Shown: piece after piece, positions 2,550 to 10,513 of the stretch | How positions within the stretch are numbered: position 1 is the first letter of the stretch | Layout of the letters: each line of letters opens with the position of its first letter | Virus record (IMG/VR): IMGVR_UViG_3300005512_005684 | Span: 231,003 to 295,002 of that record | Strand: one strand, 5' to 3' | Source: a virus | Lineage: Duplodnaviria; Heunggongvirae; Uroviricota; Caudoviricetes | DNA length: 64,000 nt | Program-made: the position numbers and the translations under genes | Notes under the pieces: generated by a model | Databases searched by the model: none | Seen by the model: only the letters and a program-made list of their open reading frames with translations | Told to the model about the DNA's origin: nothing

Positions 2550-3185
2550 ATGAAACGTCAAGTGAAGCGTCGAGCATTCACATGTGTCGAGTTGGTCATC
2601 GTGTTGTTCGTCTTGGGAGTTCTTGCGGCGTTGCTGCTACCAGCGTTGCGGAACCTGAAACACAAGGTGATCAAGCCGAAGCCGCCCGTGTCGGCGTTCG
2701 GTGTGAAGCAGTTGACCGTCAAGGTTCCGGTTGGAGCCGATGGTCTTACCGCGGAGCAACGGAATATCAAGTTCAAGTACGATATGGATAACAAGCCGGG
2801 GGCGATCAAGCACCTGTATGTCGTGTCGGCAGTTTCCGGTGATTGTGTCCTTTACTCGACGGTGGACGGCAAGGTCACGTCTTCGGGTAAGCGCCTGAGT
2901 CCGACCACGGTCGCGGCTGGACACGAGGAAGGGGATAAGGTCGATTACGACTGGGGTGTCTCGGTCACCATCGGTGGTGAGACGTACTACACGACCGAAG
3001 TATGCCAGGACGATGGTACGTACGGGAATTCCATCGACTACTTGCTCTGGAAGGATTCTCGTGGCATAGGCCACCAGCATTATCCGACAGATGACCAGAT
3101 CATCCACGTGTCCACGCAACCGATGTCGTGGCCGAAGATCGTGTTGAACCTGGAAACCGTTGGGGTCAGGCCGAGAGTCGAGTAG
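2550..3185 (+). CDS. Prepilin-type N-terminal cleavage/methylation signal protein, paralog of 1969-2517
   Basis: GGAGG RBS; KRRAF-TCVELVIVLFVLGVLAALLLPAL matches the type IV pilin N-terminal motif. Confidence 0.8.
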   Translation: MKRQVKRRAFTCVELVIVLFVLGVLAALLLPALRNLKHKVIKPKPPVSAFGVKQLTVKVPVGADGLTAEQRNIKFKYDMDNKPGAIKHLYVVSAVSGDCVLYSTVDGKVTSSGKRLSPTTVAAGHEEGDKVDYDWGVSVTIGGETYYTTEVCQDDGTYGNSIDYLLWKDSRGIGHQHYPTDDQIIHVSTQPMSWPKIVLNLETVGVRPRVE

Positions 3186-3237: not shown

Positions 3238-3265
3238 TTGACACGTCGCGGGTACTTGCTAAGAT
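3238..3265 (+). promoter_or_regulatory. sigma70-type promoter driving the RNA array
   Basis: TTGACA-16 bp-TAAGAT with TG extended -10, just upstream of the first RNA element. Confidence 0.7.
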
Positions 3266-3331
3266 TTCCTTCCCCACTACGGTGGAGACAGGTGAAGACA
3301 ACGAGGTCAACAACGAGGCTCATTGAAATTT

Positions 3332-3461
3332 CGGCGGAGGGACTATGGAAGTGGTTCTGAGAATAGCTCACTTCGGTAGAGCATTTGCTTTAGGGGCAAA
3401 AGGTAACCAGTTCAATTCTGGTTTCTCAACCAAACTGCCATTTTCGCTTTTCCCTGCGCCG
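3332..3461 (+). ncRNA. Clamp-RNA copy A enclosing a whole tRNA-like domain
   Basis: CGGCGGAGGGA/TCCCTGCGCCG stem, CTAT/GCTTT internal loop, GGAAGTGG/CCATTTTC stem, then TTCTGAG. Confidence 0.7.
3357..3432 (+). tRNA. Atypical tRNA: Pro-like short-variable-loop body with TAG anticodon, nested in clamp A
   Basis: D arm GCTC/GAGC, anticodon arm TTTGC-TTTAGGG-GCAAA, T arm ACCAG-TTCAATT-CTGGT, only 6-bp acceptor TGAGAA/TTCTCA, A-CCA end. Confidence 0.6.
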
Positions 3462-3472
3462 TCTTAACTTTC

Positions 3473-3552
3473 GGAAGGACTGGGGAGCAAGTCAGAGTTT
3501 AGCGATTCACAATCGTTGCCAAAACAACACCCTTGGTCTCGACTTTCCTTCC
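3473..3552 (+). ncRNA. Clamp-RNA copy B with CCA-ended hairpin cargo
   Basis: GGAAGGA/TCCTTCC stem, CTG/GACTT loop, GGGAGCAAG/CTTGGTCTC stem, TCAGAG, then TAGCGATT-CAC-AATCGTTG-CCA. Confidence 0.65.
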
Positions 3553-3766
3553 ACTTTTCGACATCTTGAATCAATCGCGACGGTGGAGTCGTTTCGCAGT
3601 TCGCCGTGTTACGCCGAGTACCGTAAGGGAAACGTGTGTTGTGTGTCTGCCCGGCGTCTCCCGTCGCTTTTGGACGCCCTGTTACGTACGGACAGGGTAA
3701 CTTCCTCTGGCTCATGTGCCCTGGTAAAGGTAACCCCTCGACGGGTATGTCGGAGGAAGTTTCTAA

Positions 3767-3844
3767 TGCGGAGTGGAGCAGCCTGGAGTGCTCGCTGGTT
3801 TCATAAGCCAGAGGCCGTGGGTTCAAATCCCACCTCCGCTACCA
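3767..3844 (+). tRNA. tRNA-Met(CAT), initiator-like
   Basis: Full cloverleaf, 1:72 mismatch, anticodon loop TTCATAA, encoded CCA. Confidence 0.9.
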
Positions 3845-3946
3845 CTGTGGTCTGTGAAGGTTCAATTCCTTCGTCCTATTCGCAGTTTGTACAGACGGTT
3901 TAGGCTTGGCGAATACATGAATCGCTAGGAAGGCATGGTGCCGCAG
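3845..3946 (+). ncRNA. YrlA-like permuted tRNA-like element (T arm, closed acceptor-like stem, D-like hairpin)
   Basis: GAAGG-TTCAATT-CCTTC T arm, TCCTA/TAGGA stem with inner hairpin, GGCA-TGG-TGCC, ends CTGT/GCAG can pair. Confidence 0.35.
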
Positions 3947-3960
3947 GTCCCTTGTTCTTT

Positions 3961-4090
3961 GAACTCTTGAGCTTCAGCGGACCCACGACGCTGTTCTCAG
4001 CTTGTCTGAGAGGGGAGAGTGGGTGTGAAAGTGAAAGTCTTATAAGAGCGTGGTGAACACGCGACCCTTAAACCGTAGCTTCAAGAGTTC
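3961..4090 (+). ncRNA. Unclassified structured RNA of about 130 nt
   Basis: Closing stem GAACTCTTGA/TCAAGAGTTC; internal ACCCAC/GTGGGT, TTCTCAG/CTGAGAG, GCGTG/CACGC. Confidence 0.5.
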
Positions 4091-4096
4091 TTTGTT

Positions 4097-4211
4097 CGAG
4101 AGAATAGACCAAGGCGGATTGGGCGCATCGACTAATATGGCCTAAGTCACCCGGTCTTCGGACAGGGAAATGCTGGTTCGATTCCAGCCGTCCCGCATGG
4201 CTGTTCTCTCG
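4097..4211 (+). ncRNA. Degenerate tRNA-like domain sealed in an outer stem
   Basis: CGAGAGAATAG/CTGTTCTCTCG outer stem; D arm GACT/AGTC; C(TTCG)G-capped anticodon-position arm; T arm GCTGG-TTCGATT-CCAGC. Confidence 0.5.
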
Positions 4212-4289
4212 GCGTTATACCGAATGGTGTAACACTGATTGGTGTAACGCGGATGTGCGTAATGCAGAACTGCGTAGAGGGTTTTTGGT

Positions 4290-4532
4290 ATGCTTCGCTC
4301 ATTCATAATCGGTGCAGTGATTCTTTGCTCGGCGATTCCCGTTCAGGTAACACTCAGGTTGCTTGGGCTTCCCCGAGACGTTGGTCTAGCCGCGGCGGTT
4401 GTCGTGGCTTTGATCGGTGCGGCGTTCCAGGTACGAGCCTTTTGGACGGCACACGTGGAACGTAGGAAGTTGGACGAGAGGATGTATGTGCAACGAAAGT
4501 TGCTGGAGTATTCGATCCGGTGTAACCCGTAA
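4290..4532 (+). CDS. Small two-TM membrane protein inside the RNA array
   Basis: Two hydrophobic segments then charged tail; 3' end overlaps tRNA-Asn. Confidence 0.55.
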   Translation: MLRSFIIGAVILCSAIPVQVTLRLLGLPRDVGLAAAVVVALIGAAFQVRAFWTAHVERRKLDERMYVQRKLLEYSIRCNP

Positions 4533-4599
4533 CTGGTAGCGGAGCGGATTGTTAATCCGTGGGTCAGTACCCCTGGAGGTTCGAGTCCTCCCGCTGGAG
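4516..4599 (+). tRNA. tRNA-Asn(GTT) with long variable arm
   Basis: TCCGGTG/CGCTGGA acceptor, GCGGA-TTGTTAA-TCCGT, variable hairpin GGGT-CAGT-ACCC, T arm GGAGG-TTCGAGT-CCTCC, G73. Confidence 0.8.
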
Positions 4600-4706
4600 T
4601 GAGACAGATGGCGCGTCCCTTAAAGAAACCTCTGGAGGATGGGACGCTTGCGAGGCCCTCGGGTGACGGGCTCCCTCCCACCGCCTTGACATCTGACAGG
4701 TATTAA

Positions 4707-4780
4707 GCGGACGTAATTCAGTGGTAGAATGAGAGGTTTCCAACCTCTTCGCCTGAGTTCGATTCTCAGTGTCCGCTCCA
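4707..4780 (+). tRNA. tRNA-Gly(TCC)
   Basis: GCGGACG/TGTCCGC, AGAGG-TTTCCAA-CCTCT, U73, CCA. Confidence 0.93.
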
Positions 4781-4889
4781 GGAGTTTCGCCGTTTTAGGG
4801 CGGTTAAGCTGATCGTCTGAGGTCGTGTAGTCCCGTGCGACTCCGCCCGAAGGGAACGAGGGTACCTAGGAGGGAGAACGGGAACTTAT

Positions 4890-4965
4890 GGGGAGGCATG
4901 TTCCAAGGGGGCGACTGACCCTTGCAAGGTCGGTGTGGTGGATTCGATTTCCACCCTCTCCACCA
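4890..4965 (+). tRNA. tRNA-Ala(TGC)
   Basis: G3:U70 pair in GGGGAGG/CCTCTCC, loop CTTGCAA, A73-CCA. Confidence 0.88.
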
Positions 4966-4986
4966 AGGATTAGTTGTTAGTCGTTA

Positions 4987-5001
4987 GCTCTTTGAAAATT
5001 T
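4987..5001 (+). promoter_or_regulatory. boxA-like antitermination element
   Basis: GCTCTTTGAAAATTT resembles rrn boxA (TGCTCTTTAACA / GTTCTTTGAAAA). Confidence 0.6.
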
Positions 5002-5326
5002 CGGTCGGTCTCTTGCCTGTGGCTCGAAATGCCACTACCGTTCGTGGTAAGGCAACGCGTGGTAGGGTGAGTGTTACGTGGGTACAGAGAGTAAGGAAGC
5101 GTAATGTTGCTGCGGTTCGATGCCGTAAAGAACACTCAGGTGTCGTTTCGCGGTGAAGGTGCGAATTACATTGAAAAATCAAGTTGAACGGCGCACCTTG
5201 GAGGTAGAGTCCTCCCACAACGTTGACGGCGGTCGGCCAACCGTCACGAGTTGTGTGACAGAACAACGCGACTATACTTGAAGTTGAGAGAGGGTGACTC
5301 CTTTCTCCGGGTAAGAACAGACCGAA
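5000..5326 (+). ncRNA. Large unclassified structured RNA of about 325 nt
   Basis: Ends pair (TTCGGTC/GACCGAA and TCTTGCCTG/CGGGTAAGA); three T-loop-like hairpins and several multibranch stems inside. Confidence 0.6.
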
Positions 5327-5327
5327 T

Positions 5328-5387
5328 GGATTCCTGCACCTCTAGCGTGGTCGCTCTTTTGGAGTTCGATTCTCCGGTAGGGGTCCA
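5328..5387 (+). ncRNA. tRNA-like minihelix lacking an anticodon arm
   Basis: TTCCTGC/GTAGGGG acceptor-like stem, AGCG-TGGT-CGCT hairpin, TGGAG-TTCGATT-CTCCG T arm, ends T-CCA. Confidence 0.45.
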
Positions 5388-5530
5388 GCGTTGGTAACAC
5401 AGCGACAACCGAAAGCATCGGACTCGTTGTGTCAGTAGATGGTCGAGGGAAGAAAGGAATGATGATTGTACGATACTACCGGAAGCCCCGGACCTCGTGC
5501 ATAGTTCCCGGAATGAATCGACCATACCAA

Positions 5531-5544
5531 TGCTCTTTGAAAAC
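5531..5544 (+). promoter_or_regulatory. boxA-like antitermination element
   Basis: TGCTCTTTGAAAAC. Confidence 0.65.
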
Positions 5545-5835
5545 ACGGGCGTAGGCGAATCGGTAAACGCCGTCTCATGACTGGGTGAGACGTAAAGGGT
5601 TGCTTCCGACTGGCCGCATTATTGGTCGGTCGTCACAAAGTGAAACCCACAATGTTCCAGGTCAAGGTTGGGCCTGGAAAGGGGAGTGTTAAGTAACACA
5701 TCCTCTTCGTTGCCTTATACCCAGGTGAGTGAGTGGGAAAGTCGTGGCCAAAGTGCACAATGACTGCGACACGAAGCTCGCTTTAGCGACGAGGCAATAA
5801 ACGTGTTACAGTTGGTTCGACTCCAACCGCCCGTG
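5545..5835 (+). ncRNA. tRNA-framed RNA with ~220-nt structured insertion at the variable-arm position
   Basis: ACGGGCG/CGCCCGT acceptor, GGCG-AATCGGTAAA-CGCC D arm, GTCTCA/TGAGAC arm with non-canonical loop, GTTGG-TTCGACT-CCAAC T arm 220 nt later. Confidence 0.7.
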
Positions 5836-5850
5836 TGAGCTTGAAAATAC

Positions 5851-5923
5851 GAAGGGACTTGGGTGTAAGTCATAGACCCAATGTTTAACTGGTAACACTA
5901 ACCTTGTGCCCGCTTTTCCCTTC
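5851..5923 (+). ncRNA. Clamp-RNA copy C with isolated D-arm cargo
   Basis: GAAGGGA/TCCCTTC, CTT/GCTTT loop, GGGTGTAAG/CTTGTGCCC, TCATAG, cargo TGTT-TAACTGGT-AACA. Confidence 0.7.
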
Positions 5924-5989
5924 AATTGAAATCAAACAGGAGTGGTGCAATGGGACTTTCCAGGTTTAGTAGCTCGGCAATTTTGTCGA

Positions 5990-6068
5990 GCAGGTGTAGC
6001 TCAGTTACGGTAAGAGCACCGGTTTGAAACGCCGGGTGTCGTCGGTTCAACTTCGACCACCTGCACCA
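5990..6068 (+). tRNA. tRNA-Phe(GAA)
   Basis: GCAGGTG/CACCTGC, CCGGT-TTGAAAC-GCCGG, A73-CCA. Confidence 0.92.
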
Positions 6069-6246
6069 TTTGACAGAGCACAGGTTCGAGTCCTGTAGGA
6101 CGTATAATGGTAAAGAAAAAGAAAGAACCAAGTGAGACGGAACTGCTCCGTGCCTTGTGTGAAGCGAGTAATATCAAGGTGACTTCAAAGATGACAAAAT
6201 TTGACATGAGAGTTGCTTTGAGTGTTTCACATTCGACTTTTTGTTA

Positions 6247-6388
6247 GTTCCGTTTTCTGGGGGCGCACCGTGGCTATGAACGGAAAGAGGTTCTCAGAAA
6301 CACGATAGCGGCGCGCGCAACCTATCGGACGCTATGAGGGCTTATCCGGGGGTCATGCTCCCTTGAGTGCCCCGCCAAAAGACGGAAC
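6247..6388 (+). ncRNA. Unclassified structured RNA of about 140 nt
   Basis: GTTCCGTTTT/AAGACGGAAC and GGGGCGC/GTGCCCC closing stems; contains CTATG...AGAGGTTCTCAGAA resembling the clamp 5' arm. Confidence 0.5.
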
Positions 6389-6390
6389 AC

Positions 6391-6404
6391 TGATCTTTGA
6401 CATT
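6391..6404 (+). promoter_or_regulatory. boxA-like element
   Basis: TGATCTTTGACATT. Confidence 0.5.
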
Positions 6405-6413
6405 CCCTAACGC

Positions 6414-6524
6414 TCCCACCTCGTTGGCCCCAGGTTTACACCGACCTGGGGTAATGGTACCGGCTCTTGGGACCCTACCAAAACAACAATCCCAAGAGTC
6501 GGTGCCTACAACTTTGGACGGGAG
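6414..6524 (+). ncRNA. Two-hairpin RNA with a CA-rich exposed loop
   Basis: GCCCCAGGTT/GACCTGGGGT hairpin; 17-bp stem 6456-6472/6490-6506 with loop CCCTACCAAAACAACAA. Confidence 0.5.
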
Positions 6525-6537
6525 ACAGACATCGAAT

Positions 6538-6673
6538 TTTGAGGGGACTATGGGAGAGGTTCTGAGAACATCAGCTTCACACGCTGAGAGTATGGGTTCG
6601 ATTCCCATTACGTCCACCAACATAGGACGCATAGTTCAATTGGTTTAATACCTGTCTCGCTTTTCCCCTCAAA
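6538..6673 (+). ncRNA. Clamp-RNA copy D enclosing a circularly permuted tRNA-Val(CAC)
   Basis: TTTGAGGGGA/TCCCCTCAAA, CTAT/GCTTT loop, GGGAGAGGT/ACCTGTCTC, TCTGAG; tRNA 3' part (6565-6619) precedes 5' part (6625-6646). Confidence 0.75.
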
Positions 6674-6781
6674 GCTCTTTCATGGGAGGCTCGGATGCTA
6701 GTTGGAAGGCCGACCCATAGCTCCGAGTCTCCCTTATTTTGAGCCTGGTGGTTGCGAGTTTGAGTCTCGCCAGGGTCATAC

Positions 6782-6854
6782 GGGCGACTAACTCAGCGGC
6801 TAGAGTGCTTGTCTTACACACAAGTGGCCGGAGGTTCAAATCCTCCGTCGCCCA
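6782..6854 (+). tRNA. tRNA-Val(TAC)
   Basis: GGGCGAC/GTCGCCC, CTTGT-CTTACAC-ACAAG, GGAGG-TTCAAAT-CCTCC, A73. Confidence 0.93.
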
Positions 6855-6886
6855 TGAGTCGATGACATTGGGAACAACAGGAGGTA

Positions 6887-7741
6887 ATGATGGAACAGCA
6901 AGAGGTACTCACAAGAGCCTTCGAGAAAATCGGAGCACAAGTGGACGTGACTCCGCGGTCACGGCTTACTGGTCGTGCGTCGGTACGTGCACGTCAGAAC
7001 GCACAAGCCGTCCGTCTGGACGTTGCGAACCGTGGCAAGCGGGGGGAAGTCTTTGACGTTGTTCTGAATGACGAAGACGGGCTTGGTGTCCAGGTGAGCG
7101 TACCGGACATCGACCGGAAGGATCGCCACCTCTTGCTCGTGGTTAAGTCTCAGGGGGCACGACAGGGTATGCCGCAGACGACCGAGAAATTCCTTTGCGG
7201 TCACGACGAGCGTCAATGGTTTGTGGCCGGTGTCAAGAATGCCGGTGTGCGTGACGTGCGTTCGGCCAAGGAATCTTTGAAGCCGGGCTATGCAGCGGAA
7301 TCCCAGAGCAGAGCCAAGGTAAGAAAGAAAGATCGAAACCGTCGGAAGAACAAAGGCTTCAAGAGACAGGGAGAGTTTTTCTTTGTGCCGGAGCCGAGTT
7401 TCAAGCCGGACGAAAAACTCTTGCTTCGGAATGAACCGATGCAACGGGGAAGTGCCGGGAGTAAGCCGCACATGGCCGAGTTGCTTGTGCGTATGGGTGG
7501 TGAGACGGTACACGTGTCACCTGCTTATCCGAACGGTCTTACTCAGGCTTCGTACGACAGGCTTGTCAAGGAAAATCCGAATGCGAGACGTTGGGCGTGG
7601 CGAACTATGAGACGCGATGCGACCGCGTATGTGAAAGGCAAGGTGCGACACTCGGATCACAAGACACTCGTGCTGAAGGAATGGCACCGGGTGCAAATCA
7701 GTGAGGAAGAGACAACTAGCAGTGTCGCGTTCCTCGACTAG
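6887..7741 (+). CDS. Conserved hypothetical protein inside the RNA array (RQG[DE] ... HxDH motif, basic)
   Basis: AGGAGG RBS; FLCGHDERQWFV, RQGEFFFVP, VRHSDHKTL motifs. Confidence 0.8.
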   Translation: MMEQQEVLTRAFEKIGAQVDVTPRSRLTGRASVRARQNAQAVRLDVANRGKRGEVFDVVLNDEDGLGVQVSVPDIDRKDRHLLLVVKSQGARQGMPQTTEKFLCGHDERQWFVAGVKNAGVRDVRSAKESLKPGYAAESQSRAKVRKKDRNRRKNKGFKRQGEFFFVPEPSFKPDEKLLLRNEPMQRGSAGSKPHMAELLVRMGGETVHVSPAYPNGLTQASYDRLVKENPNARRWAWRTMRRDATAYVKGKVRHSDHKTLVLKEWHRVQISEEETTSSVAFLD

Positions 7742-7755
7742 AATGAGCCGGTCAC

Positions 7756-7828
7756 GGGAGACTAGCTCAACTGGTAGAGCATCGAACCGATAATTCGAGG
7801 GTTGCTGGTTCGAGTCCAGCGTTTCCCA
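7756..7828 (+). tRNA. tRNA-Ile(GAT) with C33
   Basis: GGGAGAC/GTTTCCC, TCGAA-CCGATAA-TTCGA, GCTGG-TTCGAGT-CCAGC. Confidence 0.88.
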
Positions 7829-7832
7829 TACA

Positions 7833-7970
7833 GCGAGCGTGGCGTAATTGGTAACCGCGTATACCGTAATTCCTAGCACGCCTGGTTGGGTAGGTCGGAT
7901 CCGAAGACTCTATGGCGTGGAGTCAGGCGAAAGTCAATTAGGGTTGCTGGTTCGATTCCAGCCGCTCGCG
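7833..7970 (+). ncRNA. tRNA-framed RNA whose anticodon/variable region is replaced by a ~85-nt domain
   Basis: GCGAGCG/CGCTCGC acceptor, GCG-TAATTGGTAAC-CGC D arm, GCTGG-TTCGATT-CCAGC T arm, inner CACGCC/GGCGTG and CCTAG/TTAGG stems. Confidence 0.7.
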
Positions 7971-7975
7971 ACTTT

Positions 7976-8050
7976 AGGGTCGCAGCAAGTGGGTGTTGCG
8001 GTCGGTCTCCAAAACCGATGTCTTAGAGGGTTCGATTCTCTCCGGCCCTG
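7976..8050 (+). tRNA. tRNA-Trp(CCA)
   Basis: AGGGTCG/CGGCCCT, TCGGT-CTCCAAA-ACCGA, G73. Confidence 0.85.
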
Positions 8051-8097: not shown

Positions 8098-9561
8098 ATG
8101 CGAGGAATGGTAGATTATCTCACGGCTGCGTGCGCGGGCACCGGCCAGGCCACCATGTACAACACGAGGGAAGAACAGGACGCCGCATTGGCCGTGGTTC
8201 ACGGTGAAGCTCTCAAGGCCAGTCGCCGGTTCTATGCCTTGTCTGCGGTGTTGCCCATGAACGACCGGAGCAAGCAATTGACCATGATCAACTTGCTGCG
8301 GACGGGTCAGTCTCTCGTACACCTGGACGAAGACGAGTGCGAGACGGAGATCATGATCGAGGAAAACGTCTTCAAGTACTTGCTGGAGACGATGCCTTTT
8401 AACAGGGTCCTCGACCTCTTCGTCATGCTGCGAGAGGCCAAGGTGAACAATAGCCGTACGCGCCGGTTCGCTCGTATGGTCTGGGAGGAAGTGGACGCGT
8501 ACCGGGCAATCAAGTATCCGACGAAGCTGCGTGCGCTTTTGCGCCACGGCCACGTGCCGGAGAAAGGTGTCCCGGAGAGACGAGAACTCCATGCGTTCTT
8601 GTTCGGTCGGATCAAGAAAGCGTCGGATGTGAAGCATTGCGCGTTGCTAAAGGATCGTTTCCGAGCGCGTAAGACTTACGAAGCGTTGTTCGCGTTGCCG
8701 TATGACATTGCCGTTGATCTGGCGGTAGGTTTCCACGGGAAGACCGCAGAGGACTTCAAGCGAGAATACTCCAGTCACGGTAAGGCAACCCGGAAGGAAA
8801 AACTCCGGGCACGACAGACCGCGAAGGCTGCGGTGGACTTCAACAACTACTCGTTGCTGGAGTTGCTGCGGCACTTGTACCAGCATGAAGATGATCTGGA
8901 CGCGGCTCGTGACGTGCTTGACCGGAAAGCGTCCAAGGTTGCGGGAGGGATTATTCTCCCGGAGAAAACGGCCTTGGTCGTGGACAACAGTTACAGTGCA
9001 ATCGGAAGTGGAGAACGGAAGTTCCATTCGTTGTCAGTCATCGAAGCTCTGACTCGCATTTTCTTCGCCGCGGATGGTGAAGGGTGTGAGGTTAAGGCAT
9101 TCACCGTTGGCCCCGAGGTTGATGGTGGTTTGATGCGAGCCGCAGGTGCGACGGAGATTAGACGCCCGCTGGCGGAAGCGTTAGTGTGGCGACCGAACGT
9201 CGTACTGATCCTCTCGGACGGGTACGAGAACATGAGCGCTGGAAGTGCGGCGCAGGTTCTCAATACTCGTGCGGTGCGGGATAGTGGAATCAGTGTGATC
9301 CATCTGAACCCGGTTGTGTCCTTTGAGAAACGTGAGGGTACTGGCGTCGTTCGCCAGATTGCTGACAGAGCGCCGTCTCTGGTTCTGACGGCTCCAGAGC
9401 AACTGCCGATGGTTTACCTCCTCGGTCGCGCTCATAGTGACCCTCGTTTCCTGGAGGAGTTTTTCGTAGGTGTCGAGAGAGCCGTTGTGAGTGGAGGAAC
9501 CGACGATGTTAAGAGACTTACTCAGGGGCTTAGAGGCTTGCCCGCCCCAGTCAGTGGGTAA
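8098..9561 (+). CDS. Helical-repeat plus C-terminal vWA protein (TROVE/Ro60-like architecture)
   Basis: AGGAGG RBS; long basic helical N-terminus; MIDAS motif LVVDNSYS, GATEI, LILSDGYEN. Confidence 0.7.
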   Translation: MRGMVDYLTAACAGTGQATMYNTREEQDAALAVVHGEALKASRRFYALSAVLPMNDRSKQLTMINLLRTGQSLVHLDEDECETEIMIEENVFKYLLETMPFNRVLDLFVMLREAKVNNSRTRRFARMVWEEVDAYRAIKYPTKLRALLRHGHVPEKGVPERRELHAFLFGRIKKASDVKHCALLKDRFRARKTYEALFALPYDIAVDLAVGFHGKTAEDFKREYSSHGKATRKEKLRARQTAKAAVDFNNYSLLELLRHLYQHEDDLDAARDVLDRKASKVAGGIILPEKTALVVDNSYSAIGSGERKFHSLSVIEALTRIFFAADGEGCEVKAFTVGPEVDGGLMRAAGATEIRRPLAEALVWRPNVVLILSDGYENMSAGSAAQVLNTRAVRDSGISVIHLNPVVSFEKREGTGVVRQIADRAPSLVLTAPEQLPMVYLLGRAHSDPRFLEEFFVGVERAVVSGGTDDVKRLTQGLRGLPAPVSG

Positions 9562-10513
9562 CATGGTCGTGGTGCCGATCATCGGTGCCGAGACAGAGTT
9601 CCGAAACGTCGGTCATGTTGGCGACGTGCAACTGCGCGAAGATGTCAGCTATGAGTCGATGCGCTTCGGCACGGACTCTCGGCACGTAACGATTGTGCCC
9701 CAGGGACTCGTGTGTCTCACGAAGGAAAGCGCGCAGGACCGCGTGCTTCCGTCCGCACACCTCTTGCAGGGGAAGGAAGGGAAGCAACTTCACACGTTCT
9801 GCGTTCAGTCGAGCCAATGCGGTCTCATGCGTAAGGACAGGGAAGAGGAACGGCAGTTCCGATTGCTTCCTGCGAGTTTGCGACTCAAGGCGTACCGTAA
9901 CCGGGACACCGCAGGGTACTCCGCGTTGTGGGAAGACTTGAGAGCATTCAATACGTCCACGGGTGCGACCGAACGTGGTAGCCAAGGGGAAGACTTCCTC
10001 GTCAATTTCTTCAGGAAGTTCGACGAACAGATCGCCGAGTTCGTTGCGGAGTTCGAGCCGGTCGAAGGCCAGCGGGGAGCTATCGTCCTCGTGAATGGCT
10101 CCGTGGTCGGTGTGGAAGTCATGCCCAACCGGGAGACCTTCCTGGATATGTGGCAGTACCTTATTCGAGACTGCTACGGCTCGGAAGCTCTGGCAAGGAT
10201 CGACAAGGCTAAGCCGGAGCGAGCGTTTGTCCTTGAAGACGTTGGTGACCTCGATCAGTTGGTCGGTGCCGTTGACCGGTTGGCTGAGAAAGAGCAGGCT
10301 TGGGCAGAGGAAGTGGCCGAGTCTGTTCTGAGTGAGGGAGTCGAACTTCAGTCCGCGGAGGCAGAGGGTGCATTCTCTCTCCATAACGTGGACATGCCTG
10401 GCTATGATGGCCAGTTGGTCAAGAAAGAGGAAGATACTATTTTCCTGTCTCTCTTGGCAAAGGAGGCCGGACGCCGTGGATTTCGACGTGCAACGCGCAC
10501 CAGTCGGAACTAG
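9506..10513 (+). CDS. ARPP-family (DUF6569-like) protein
   Basis: GNMVVVPI...AQDRVL...FCVQ and FEPVEGQRGAIVLVNG..VGVE...W..LI..CYG match my recollection of ARPP-1/2 motifs; overlaps the vWA gene. Confidence 0.6.
   Translation: MLRDLLRGLEACPPQSVGNMVVVPIIGAETEFRNVGHVGDVQLREDVSYESMRFGTDSRHVTIVPQGLVCLTKESAQDRVLPSAHLLQGKEGKQLHTFCVQSSQCGLMRKDREEERQFRLLPASLRLKAYRNRDTAGYSALWEDLRAFNTSTGATERGSQGEDFLVNFFRKFDEQIAEFVAEFEPVEGQRGAIVLVNGSVVGVEVMPNRETFLDMWQYLIRDCYGSEALARIDKAKPERAFVLEDVGDLDQLVGAVDRLAEKEQAWAEEVAESVLSEGVELQSAEAEGAFSLHNVDMPGYDGQLVKKEEDTIFLSLLAKEAGRRGFRRATRTSRN

Follow-up and report, generated by a model that had tools for sequence, protein, structure and literature searches.

The 64,000-nt window analyzed here (positions 231,003–295,002 of IMGVR_UViG_3300005512_005684, a one-contig Caudoviricetes virus record of 331,348 nt from a giant phage) encodes four putative small RNAs whose ends pair into a two-stem clamp around a tRNA-derived or other cargo. 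The clamp RNAs lie within an array of tRNA and tRNA-like genes (window positions ~3,300–8,050), upstream of a gene for a predicted Ro60-fold protein that is followed by a gene for an ARPP-family protein (Table 1). Comparison of homologous loci and a structure model make it very probable that the clamps are an RNA family partnered with the Ro-fold protein. Clamp RNAs and the Ro-like/ARPP module are widespread, occurring in numerous phages as well as bacteria, and together make up a form of the Ro60/Y RNA system that has apparently not been described; literature searches in a collection with few subscription papers returned no account of such a module, so that an earlier mention is possible.

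A first-pass annotation of the window had described four elements with a shared architecture, namely an outer stem ending GGA/UCC, an internal loop, an inner stem, and the word UC(U/A)(G/U)AG, and all of these features are directly seen in the sequence; the inner stem contains a single mismatch in element 2 and another in element 4. A descriptor written post hoc from the four elements has exactly these 4 matches on both strands of the 331,348-nt contig. In dinucleotide shuffles of the 4.9-kb array, 4 of 1000 sequences gave one descriptor match and 0 of 1000 gave more. Folding z-scores for elements 1 to 4 are −4.0, −2.1, −1.5, and −3.5, and the outer and inner stems of elements 1, 2, and 4 have predicted pairing probabilities of 0.88–1.0. 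Element 3 is the weakest copy. The pairing probability of its inner stem is only 0.16 alone and 0.01 with 60-nt flanks, owing to a competing local hairpin in the prediction, and its own pairing score of 32 compares with a mean of 21 and a maximum of 32 for swapped sequences.

The handle of the wider family, analyzed in 143 partly redundant Ro-like loci (79 metagenomic, 52 genomic, and 12 viral), consists of two covarying stems with the 5′ strand RRACU-N9/10-U(U/A/C)CAG. Tandem upstream clamps were recognized by eye in the first 12 loci inspected, which are hence not independent of the motif definition. Upstream sense sequence totaling 148,445 nt contains 189 copies of the motif RRACU-N7-12-U(U/A/C)CAG, as many as the 2,903,481 nt elsewhere; the density is thus 1.27 per kb within 1.3 kb upstream of the Ro-like loci versus 0.065 per kb elsewhere. 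The two words are separated by 9 or 10 nt in 185 of 199 cases. Parsed clamps, numbering one to five per locus, are present in at least 70 of the 114 loci with 600 nt of upstream sequence. Among 301 genomes of the Stieleria family (Pirellulaceae), 12 harbor a close Ro-like homolog (one a fragment) and 11 match a 20-nt clamp pattern, which adjoins the Ro-like gene in 9 of the 11. The other two matches appear chance-like, one lying within a coding gene and one having no Ro-like gene in 8 kb; the reversed control pattern gave 10 matches. The roughly 20-fold upstream enrichment and the Pirellulaceae matches beside the gene bear out the co-occurrence that the first-pass annotation had proposed as a check.

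Covariation of the handle, claimed at first from one genome, is also seen across homologs. A pairing test used 139 distinct 5′ halves, taken from 70 loci without selection for pairing; their mean score was 29.1 when each was matched with the sequence downstream of it and 18.2 when matched with swapped sequence. The native partner outscored all 20 swaps for 86 of the 139, and it came out ahead in 100 of 108 swaps made within a locus. A sequence-only alignment of 32 short-cargo elements out of 155 parsed, a selection biased toward pairing, has 77.5% paired cells versus 58.6% in shuffles and 38.5–49.5% when slid, and contains 112 double changes versus 46.7 in shuffles. Two pair-counting measures on this alignment were no better than shuffles.

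Searches of the clamps against Rfam returned tRNA-clan or chance matches alone and no match to a Y RNA model, consistent with the earlier remark that the elements belong to no recognized family. With no Rfam match and a consensus that fits none of them, readings as a ribozyme (hairpin, HDV-like theta), a kink-turn, or a C/D box were dropped. An RNA-first scan of IMG/VR with 10 matches yielded no convincing clamp, and further scans yielded 28 matches, one of which (L174) is a clear clamp ahead of Ro-like and ARPP genes; the rest are chance-like, 14 of them near-identical copies of one sequence. The close relatives L076 (positions 390–590) and L077 (685–895) carry, upstream of the Ro-like gene, a conserved tRNA-ended structured RNA of ~200 nt with no clamp motif.

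The window copies have RRACU at the family spacing, followed by a second word that deviates from the family U(U/A/C)CAG. Clamps with a window-like deviant word and the same pyrimidine 3′ loop are found at L023, the closest named locus. A profile was trained on 141 non-window clamps, which had been parsed with a pattern widened for window-like variants, and among the 159 candidates of a contig scan it placed elements 4, 2, and 1 first, second, and third. Family membership is probable for element 3 and has good support for the other three elements.

The Ro-like gene product has only a weak vWA match in Pfam, no TROVE match, and no match in NCBIfam, PHROG, or PADLOC. Its structure was modeled from a 48-sequence alignment (pLDDT 89.9). 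The first ten Foldseek rows for this model are all Ro60 proteins (TM ~0.5), and Ro60 matches reach Z 13.8–18.1 across ~400 residues, the best alignment being to the Ro60 of a Thermus phage (Z 18.1, rmsd 4.5 Å, 398 residues, 13% identity). The first non-Ro structural row has Z 11.8 and covers the vWA part alone. A profile of the Ro-like family gave no sequence match to solved Ro60 sequences. TROVE clusters are among its ESM Atlas neighbors, so the Ro-like proteins are likely a remote sister clade of TROVE. The family comprises 356 clusters at 50% identity (E up to 1e-30). Across 38 diverse members the DxSxS motif is invariant and R103, N117, R120, R122, K139, K143, and H150 are conserved; the conserved basic patch at residues 103–150 may form the RNA-binding face.

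The ARPP gene follows the Ro-like gene in 102 of the 105 loci with room for it, and it is present in 124 of 143 loci overall. Fold searches with the ARPP protein gave a best Z of 5.0 and no clear solved fold. In 35 loci the neighbors cluster solely into Ro-like genes, ARPP genes, and antisense shadows, with no third conserved gene and no RNase or ligase gene traveling with the module. At two loci, L081 and L085, clamp motifs lie downstream of ARPP, after the gene pair, and at L081 a PNKP gene adjoins them. The phage encodes a CCA/poly(A) polymerase-family enzyme; searches with working controls found no RtcB, Rnl2, TROVE, or tRNA splicing endonuclease (PF01974) in its contig, where Pfam scans covered 129 + 14 open reading frames (ORFs), the first half of the 291 listed ORFs lying outside this set. 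Phage genes at L192 (9714–11117), L193 (7662–10041), and L190 (12349–14361) comprise a PARP-family protein, a NAPRTase, a NAD synthase, and a CCA/poly(A) polymerase-family enzyme, and this NAD/ADP-ribose theme may be relevant to ARPP.

A sister clade of the Ro-like protein (28–33% identity) is partnered with Pfam ARPP-2 and is found in Pirellulaceae, Nostoc plasmids, and 45 of 151 Streptomycetaceae genomes. The same clamp geometry occurs there, with UUCCG, in 33 of 37 loci, and its small hairpin keeps U33 and U35 in 34 of 34 loops across 8 triplets. Anticodons with U35 (Lys, Glu, Gln, Tyr, His, Asn, and Asp) are the targets of PrrC, RloC, and colicin E5.

Each of the four window elements carries a different cargo. 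That of element 1 (3358–3432) was first described as a whole tRNA, which stands as far as the tRNA-like body is concerned; this linear mimic, however, has a 6-bp acceptor stem, ends in ACCA, and presents a Leu(UAG) anticodon on a body with a short variable arm, and so fails as a decoding tRNA. The supposed CCA-ended hairpin of element 2 was misread, since positions 3501–3517 form a 5-bp stem with the 7-nt loop U-U-CAC-A-A, that is, a bare Val(CAC) anticodon stem-loop. A D-arm-like hairpin at 5882–5897 is the cargo of element 3, as annotated, and element 4 is indeed a permuted tRNA-Val with anticodon CAC, opened in the D-loop, with 6 of 7 acceptor pairs and an encoded ACCA. Measured against a 7-bp acceptor, CCA, and a body-matched anticodon, none of the four qualifies as a decoding tRNA, element 4 coming nearest; it also has A73, A35, and C36, which we take to be valine-type identity nucleotides. 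ARAGORN labels these mimics Leu and Val tRNAs. The phage also encodes a normal tRNA-Val(UAC).

Across the family, 145 parsed clamps comprise 37 linear tRNA-like cargoes, 16 permuted cargoes (2 misclassified and dropped), 17 with a T arm and no detected anticodon arm, 1 with anticodon and T arms, and 74 short or other cargoes. Linear cargoes often have short acceptor stems. The credible permuted cargoes have 6–7 of 7 acceptor pairs and retain the full anticodon arm, being opened at the D-loop or the D/anticodon junction, and several place Ser or Tyr anticodons on short variable arms. A34 (non-Arg) or stop anticodons are found in 13 of 37 linear versus 0 of 14 permuted cargoes (Fisher p 0.011, uncorrected for kinship). 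In 20 orthologous Pirellulaceae RNAs (a set whose filter itself accounts for part of the clamp conservation), at least 8 triplets (UAG, CUU, UUU, AUU, AUG, AAG, UGG, and UGA) occupy a near-identical body with a ~3-bp acceptor, no CCA, and conserved D and T loops. Short acceptors, the mismatch between anticodon and body, and the turnover of anticodons between relatives with loop shape kept together show that the cargoes are not decoding tRNAs. Among the 74 cargoes without a T arm, a 4-bp stem carries a Y-U-NNN-R loop in 27, of which 4 are degenerate whole tRNAs; shuffles gave a mean of 1.0 and a maximum of 5, in a control that destroys all hairpins. Of the 50 seven-nt hairpin loops in cargoes without a recognized T arm, 19 match Y-U-NNN-R. 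Short motifs that we take to be typical of ribosomal RNA were not found in the cargoes, except for two chance-level anti-Shine-Dalgarno words.

The first-pass annotation viewed the elements as a protein-binding handle with interchangeable tRNA-mimic payloads, either decoys or a processing scaffold. Covariation, co-occurrence with the Ro-like homologs, and the Ro60-ring model support the handle and payload as a probable arrangement, and of the two options the processing scaffold is the weaker. We lean slightly toward a reading in which the clamps dock on the Ro-like ring by their handle and show tRNA parts as bait, with ARPP linked to the process; taken by itself, the bait role of the cargo stands at about even chances. 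By analogy with polycistronic Y RNA precursors, the clamps would be transcribed with the tRNA array and released as 70–140-nt RNAs. The 5′ strand RRACU...UNCAG could then dock on the basic patch of the ring, as co-occurrence, fold, and conservation suggest. The cargo, with its short acceptor, ill-matched anticodon, and anticodon turnover among homologs, is not a decoding tRNA. More speculatively, the exposed anticodon loop or elbow might attract an anticodon nuclease or another tRNA-binding factor of the host or of a rival, and ARPP, as the likely catalytic partner, might act on the trapped protein or on the end of the cleaved RNA.

Several observations weigh against this docking and bait reading. 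Many short cargoes (~20 nt) have no tRNA feature at all, and the anticodons might vary simply by drift if the loop is under no constraint, with counts uncorrected for relatedness. The window clamps lie 1.4–4.8 kb upstream of the Ro-like gene (about 1.4, 2.2, 4.5, and 4.6 kb), farther than in most homologous loci. Genome G076 has a Ro-like gene with no motif within 1.8 kb, and 44 of the 114 loci with at least 600 nt upstream have no parsed clamp, partly since duplicate sequences were dropped. The Ro-like protein is only 10–13% identical to Ro60 at an rmsd of 4.5 Å, a likeness of fold that proves no function, and PADLOC does not match it. In the profile scan, elements 4, 2, and 1 exceed the best background by a margin of 1 point and element 3 is missed. 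In a covariance-model search, element 2 was the top match, though a weak one (12.1 bits, E 1.9), and elements 1, 3, and 4 were not recovered by the model, which was built from distant short-cargo members.

The strongest rival, which we consider unlikely, is a RYPER-like tether or gate, in which the RNAs link the Ro-fold ring to an enzyme of RNA decay or repair (PNPase, or ARPP itself), the tRNA folds only lend stability or a docking elbow, and the anticodons drift. Tethering is the demonstrated role of Yrn1, YrlA, and phage Yrl1/2 (PMC4201824; PMC12135203), and it would suit both the conserved D and T loops of the Pirellulaceae set and the numerous cargoes that are featureless short loops. Against it, bare anticodon loops recur without an elbow and keep U33 (and U35 in the sister clade), and no RNase or ligase gene accompanies the module.

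Less probable still is the processing scaffold, in which RNase P and CCA maturation would open permuted copies at the acceptor loop and yield a two-piece chargeable (or spliced) tRNA held by the clamp, in the manner of algal permuted tRNAs or YrlA of M. smegmatis. The permuted cargoes, with their well-paired acceptors and lack of the A34 or stop anticodons common in linear cargoes, speak for this explanation, as do the CCA/poly(A) polymerase-family enzyme of the phage and the encoded CCA of element 4 together with its presumed valine-type nucleotides. The linear cargoes, with their short acceptors and shifting anticodons, fit it poorly, as do the permuted ones that mismatch a Ser or Tyr anticodon with a short variable arm; moreover, a complete tRNA is missing from most clamps, the phage already has a normal tRNA-Val(UAC), and splicing endonuclease, RtcB, and Rnl2 were not found in the contig.

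It is also improbable, to a slightly greater degree, that the clamp is a cis-acting leader, an mRNA operator through which the Ro-like protein controls its own operon. Such a role would agree with the ARPP-2 sister clade, where a single copy lies ~120–250 nt before the matched coding region, but tRNA-cargo copies number up to five per locus and the nearest window copy is 1.4 kb off, beyond one ORF and four tRNA-like genes. Decaying tRNA pseudogenes with ordinary processing stems trimmed off would explain cargoes that are defective as tRNAs and the words in the array that we take to resemble boxA of rRNA operons, yet this is very improbable, given that the handle keeps its spacing and sequence in different phyla, covaries, and is tightly linked to one gene pair, and that some clamps contain no tRNA at all.

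Building on the docking and bait reading, we tentatively suggest a widespread, hitherto unnoticed ribonucleoprotein trap in which a Ro60-fold ring with programmable RNA baits catches tRNA-cleaving toxins and passes the toxins or the cut RNA to ARPP. On this still doubtful proposal, the baits would be fast-changing anticodon loops, elbows, and permuted tRNAs, the last of these perhaps matured by RNase P into Ro-tethered chargeable tRNAs without splicing. If so, the trap could serve phages as a counter-defense, whereas in multicellular-type bacteria it could be protective or have a sensor role. The system offers one handle with naturally swapped cargo, including an anticodon arm that YrlA lacks, and a constant partner gene, and therefore makes the question of tRNA mimicry testable in culturable hosts (Stieleria, Streptomycetaceae, and Nostoc). 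A large Ro-like/clamp family has been overlooked by Pfam, NCBIfam, and Rfam, and ARPP gains its first RNA context. Annotation of the mimics as ordinary tRNAs skews inventories of phage tRNAs and recoding.

Table 1. Positions of the clamp RNAs, their probable protein partners, and the upstream promoter match (window coordinates).
Feature	Position	Strand	Observation
Sigma-70-like promoter before RNA array	3238..3265	+	10/12 consensus, TG extension; consensus match alone
Clamp RNA 1	3332..3461	+	Rank 3 in profile scan; high predicted pairing
Clamp RNA 2	3473..3552	+	Top covariance-model match; rank 2 in profile scan
Clamp RNA 3, weakest copy	5851..5923	+	Outside profile-scan top 25
Clamp RNA 4	6538..6673	+	Rank 1 in profile scan
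Permuted tRNA-Val(CAC) of element 4	3′ half 6565-6619 ending ACCA, 5-nt linker, 5′ half 6625 to ~6651	+	
Predicted Ro60-fold protein, 487 aa (helical ring + vWA with DxSxS); likely clamp partner	8098..9561	+	Structure model
ARPP-family protein (PF20208/PF22549), invariant Cys99 and Gln104; constant downstream partner	9506..10513	+	Pfam

The best source-named gene homologs are found in Pirellulales/Pirellulaceae metagenome-assembled genomes (44% and 42%) and the ORF at 6890–7741 has neighbors in Planctomycetota, so that, judged from sequence, a planctomycete is the likely host. This ORF (+ strand), which lies inside the array, encodes 283 aa of no known family and has a 41% homolog ~5 kb from the Ro-like gene in Stieleria (locus L064). 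Sigma-70-like promoter matches near the array number 3, versus 2.1 expected in shuffles. Words that we take to resemble boxA precede several array RNA genes (3319, 3955, 4988, 5167, and 5533, + strand), which suggests an antitermination or processing signal. The array also contains, at 4999–5325 (+), a ~325-nt structured RNA with a long closing terminal stem, a folding z-score of −3.85, and no Rfam match. The tRNA-shaped genes at 5544–5836 and 7833–7970 (+) have large inserts of 207 and 46 nt (ARAGORN intron mode), and another insert-bearing gene lies at contig position 100,142–100,484; these may be intron-containing tRNAs or additional mimics. Upstream of the array, 1969–2517 and 2550–3185 (+) encode tandem paralogous small proteins, one lipoprotein-like and the other with a prepilin-type N-terminal motif, and a big cluster of sugar-nucleotide, glycosyltransferase, sulfotransferase, and methyltransferase genes spans 20633–60559 (+).

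Bacterial Y RNAs are encoded in tandem near Ro60 and include one tRNA-like member, with only the 5′ strand conserved in YrlA (PMC4201824), and the function of their tRNA mimicry is described as open, with no effector known (PMC4201824; bioRxiv 10.1101/312249). The clamps resemble the YrlA/YrlB-Rsr systems of Salmonella, M. smegmatis, and phages in their paired ends, in a conserved word on the 5′ strand, and in the presence of several RNAs near a Ro-fold gene on the same strand; there, too, one RNA is a permuted tRNA mimic whose acceptor stem is looped and another is a plain hairpin (PMC4201824; bioRxiv 10.1101/312249). They differ from YrlA, however, in that GNCGAAN0-1G is absent from all 145 clamp 5′ strands and from all 4 elements of the window. 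The Ro stem of YrlA replaces the anticodon arm, giving a permuted T–acceptor stem–D module, whereas clamps display the anticodon loop and join handle to cargo at the D-loop, the D/anticodon junction, or the acceptor end. Unlike Rsr, the clamp-linked protein escapes Pfam TROVE, and its partner is ARPP rather than RtcB or PNPase.

A terminal two-stem handle with an internal loop is shared with D. radiodurans Yrn1/Yrn2 and metazoan Y RNAs, and the linear D–anticodon–T order of the cargo resembles that modeled for Yrn1 (PMC4201824). In contrast to Yrn1 and metazoan Y RNAs, the clamps retain whole D, anticodon, and T arms with 7-nt loops (PMC4201824), have GGUCCGA in 0 of 145 5′ strands and UUGACU in 2 of 145 3′ strands, and lack the bulged-C helix; the absence of canonical Ro-binding motifs had been pointed out in the first-pass annotation. 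Thermus phage phiLo, whose Ro60 is the best structural match given above, likewise encodes a Ro60 ring with RNAs (Yrl1/2) upstream (PMC12135203; PDB 9kop, 9l5y), but Yrl1/2 were chosen by a CGAA motif that is present in 5 of 145 clamp 5′ strands, the phiLo protein is 13% identical to the Ro-like protein of the window, and the available text mentions no ARPP (PMC12135203). The permuted tRNA genes of algae and Thermofilum also have the 3′ half first and paired flanks, with one class opened at 20/21; these use BHB motifs and a splicing endonuclease to give working tRNAs (PMC3978253), whereas no endonuclease was found in the phage contig and the clamp flank also holds non-permuted and partial cargo. 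Described ARPP proteins belong to the same Pfam families and share the conserved Cys and Gln (PMC9503650); their contexts include ARG, HIRAN, WYL, deacetylase, and vWA among ARG neighbors, with no Ro ring or RNA partner in the part of that source available. Because they fail the YrlA and Yrn1 motif tests, the clamps are not filed as YrlA, though they would work like bacterial Ro60/Y RNA. They agree with Y RNAs in the broad sense, being putative 70–150-nt RNAs with predicted paired ends and an internal loop (weak in element 3), encoded upstream of a Ro60-type gene on the same strand (with family enrichment within 1.3 kb and the window copies at 1.4 to 4.6 kb, against the ~4 kb taken for Y RNAs), and the predicted helical ring and vWA domain with MIDAS of their probable partner are those of Ro60/TROVE proteins.

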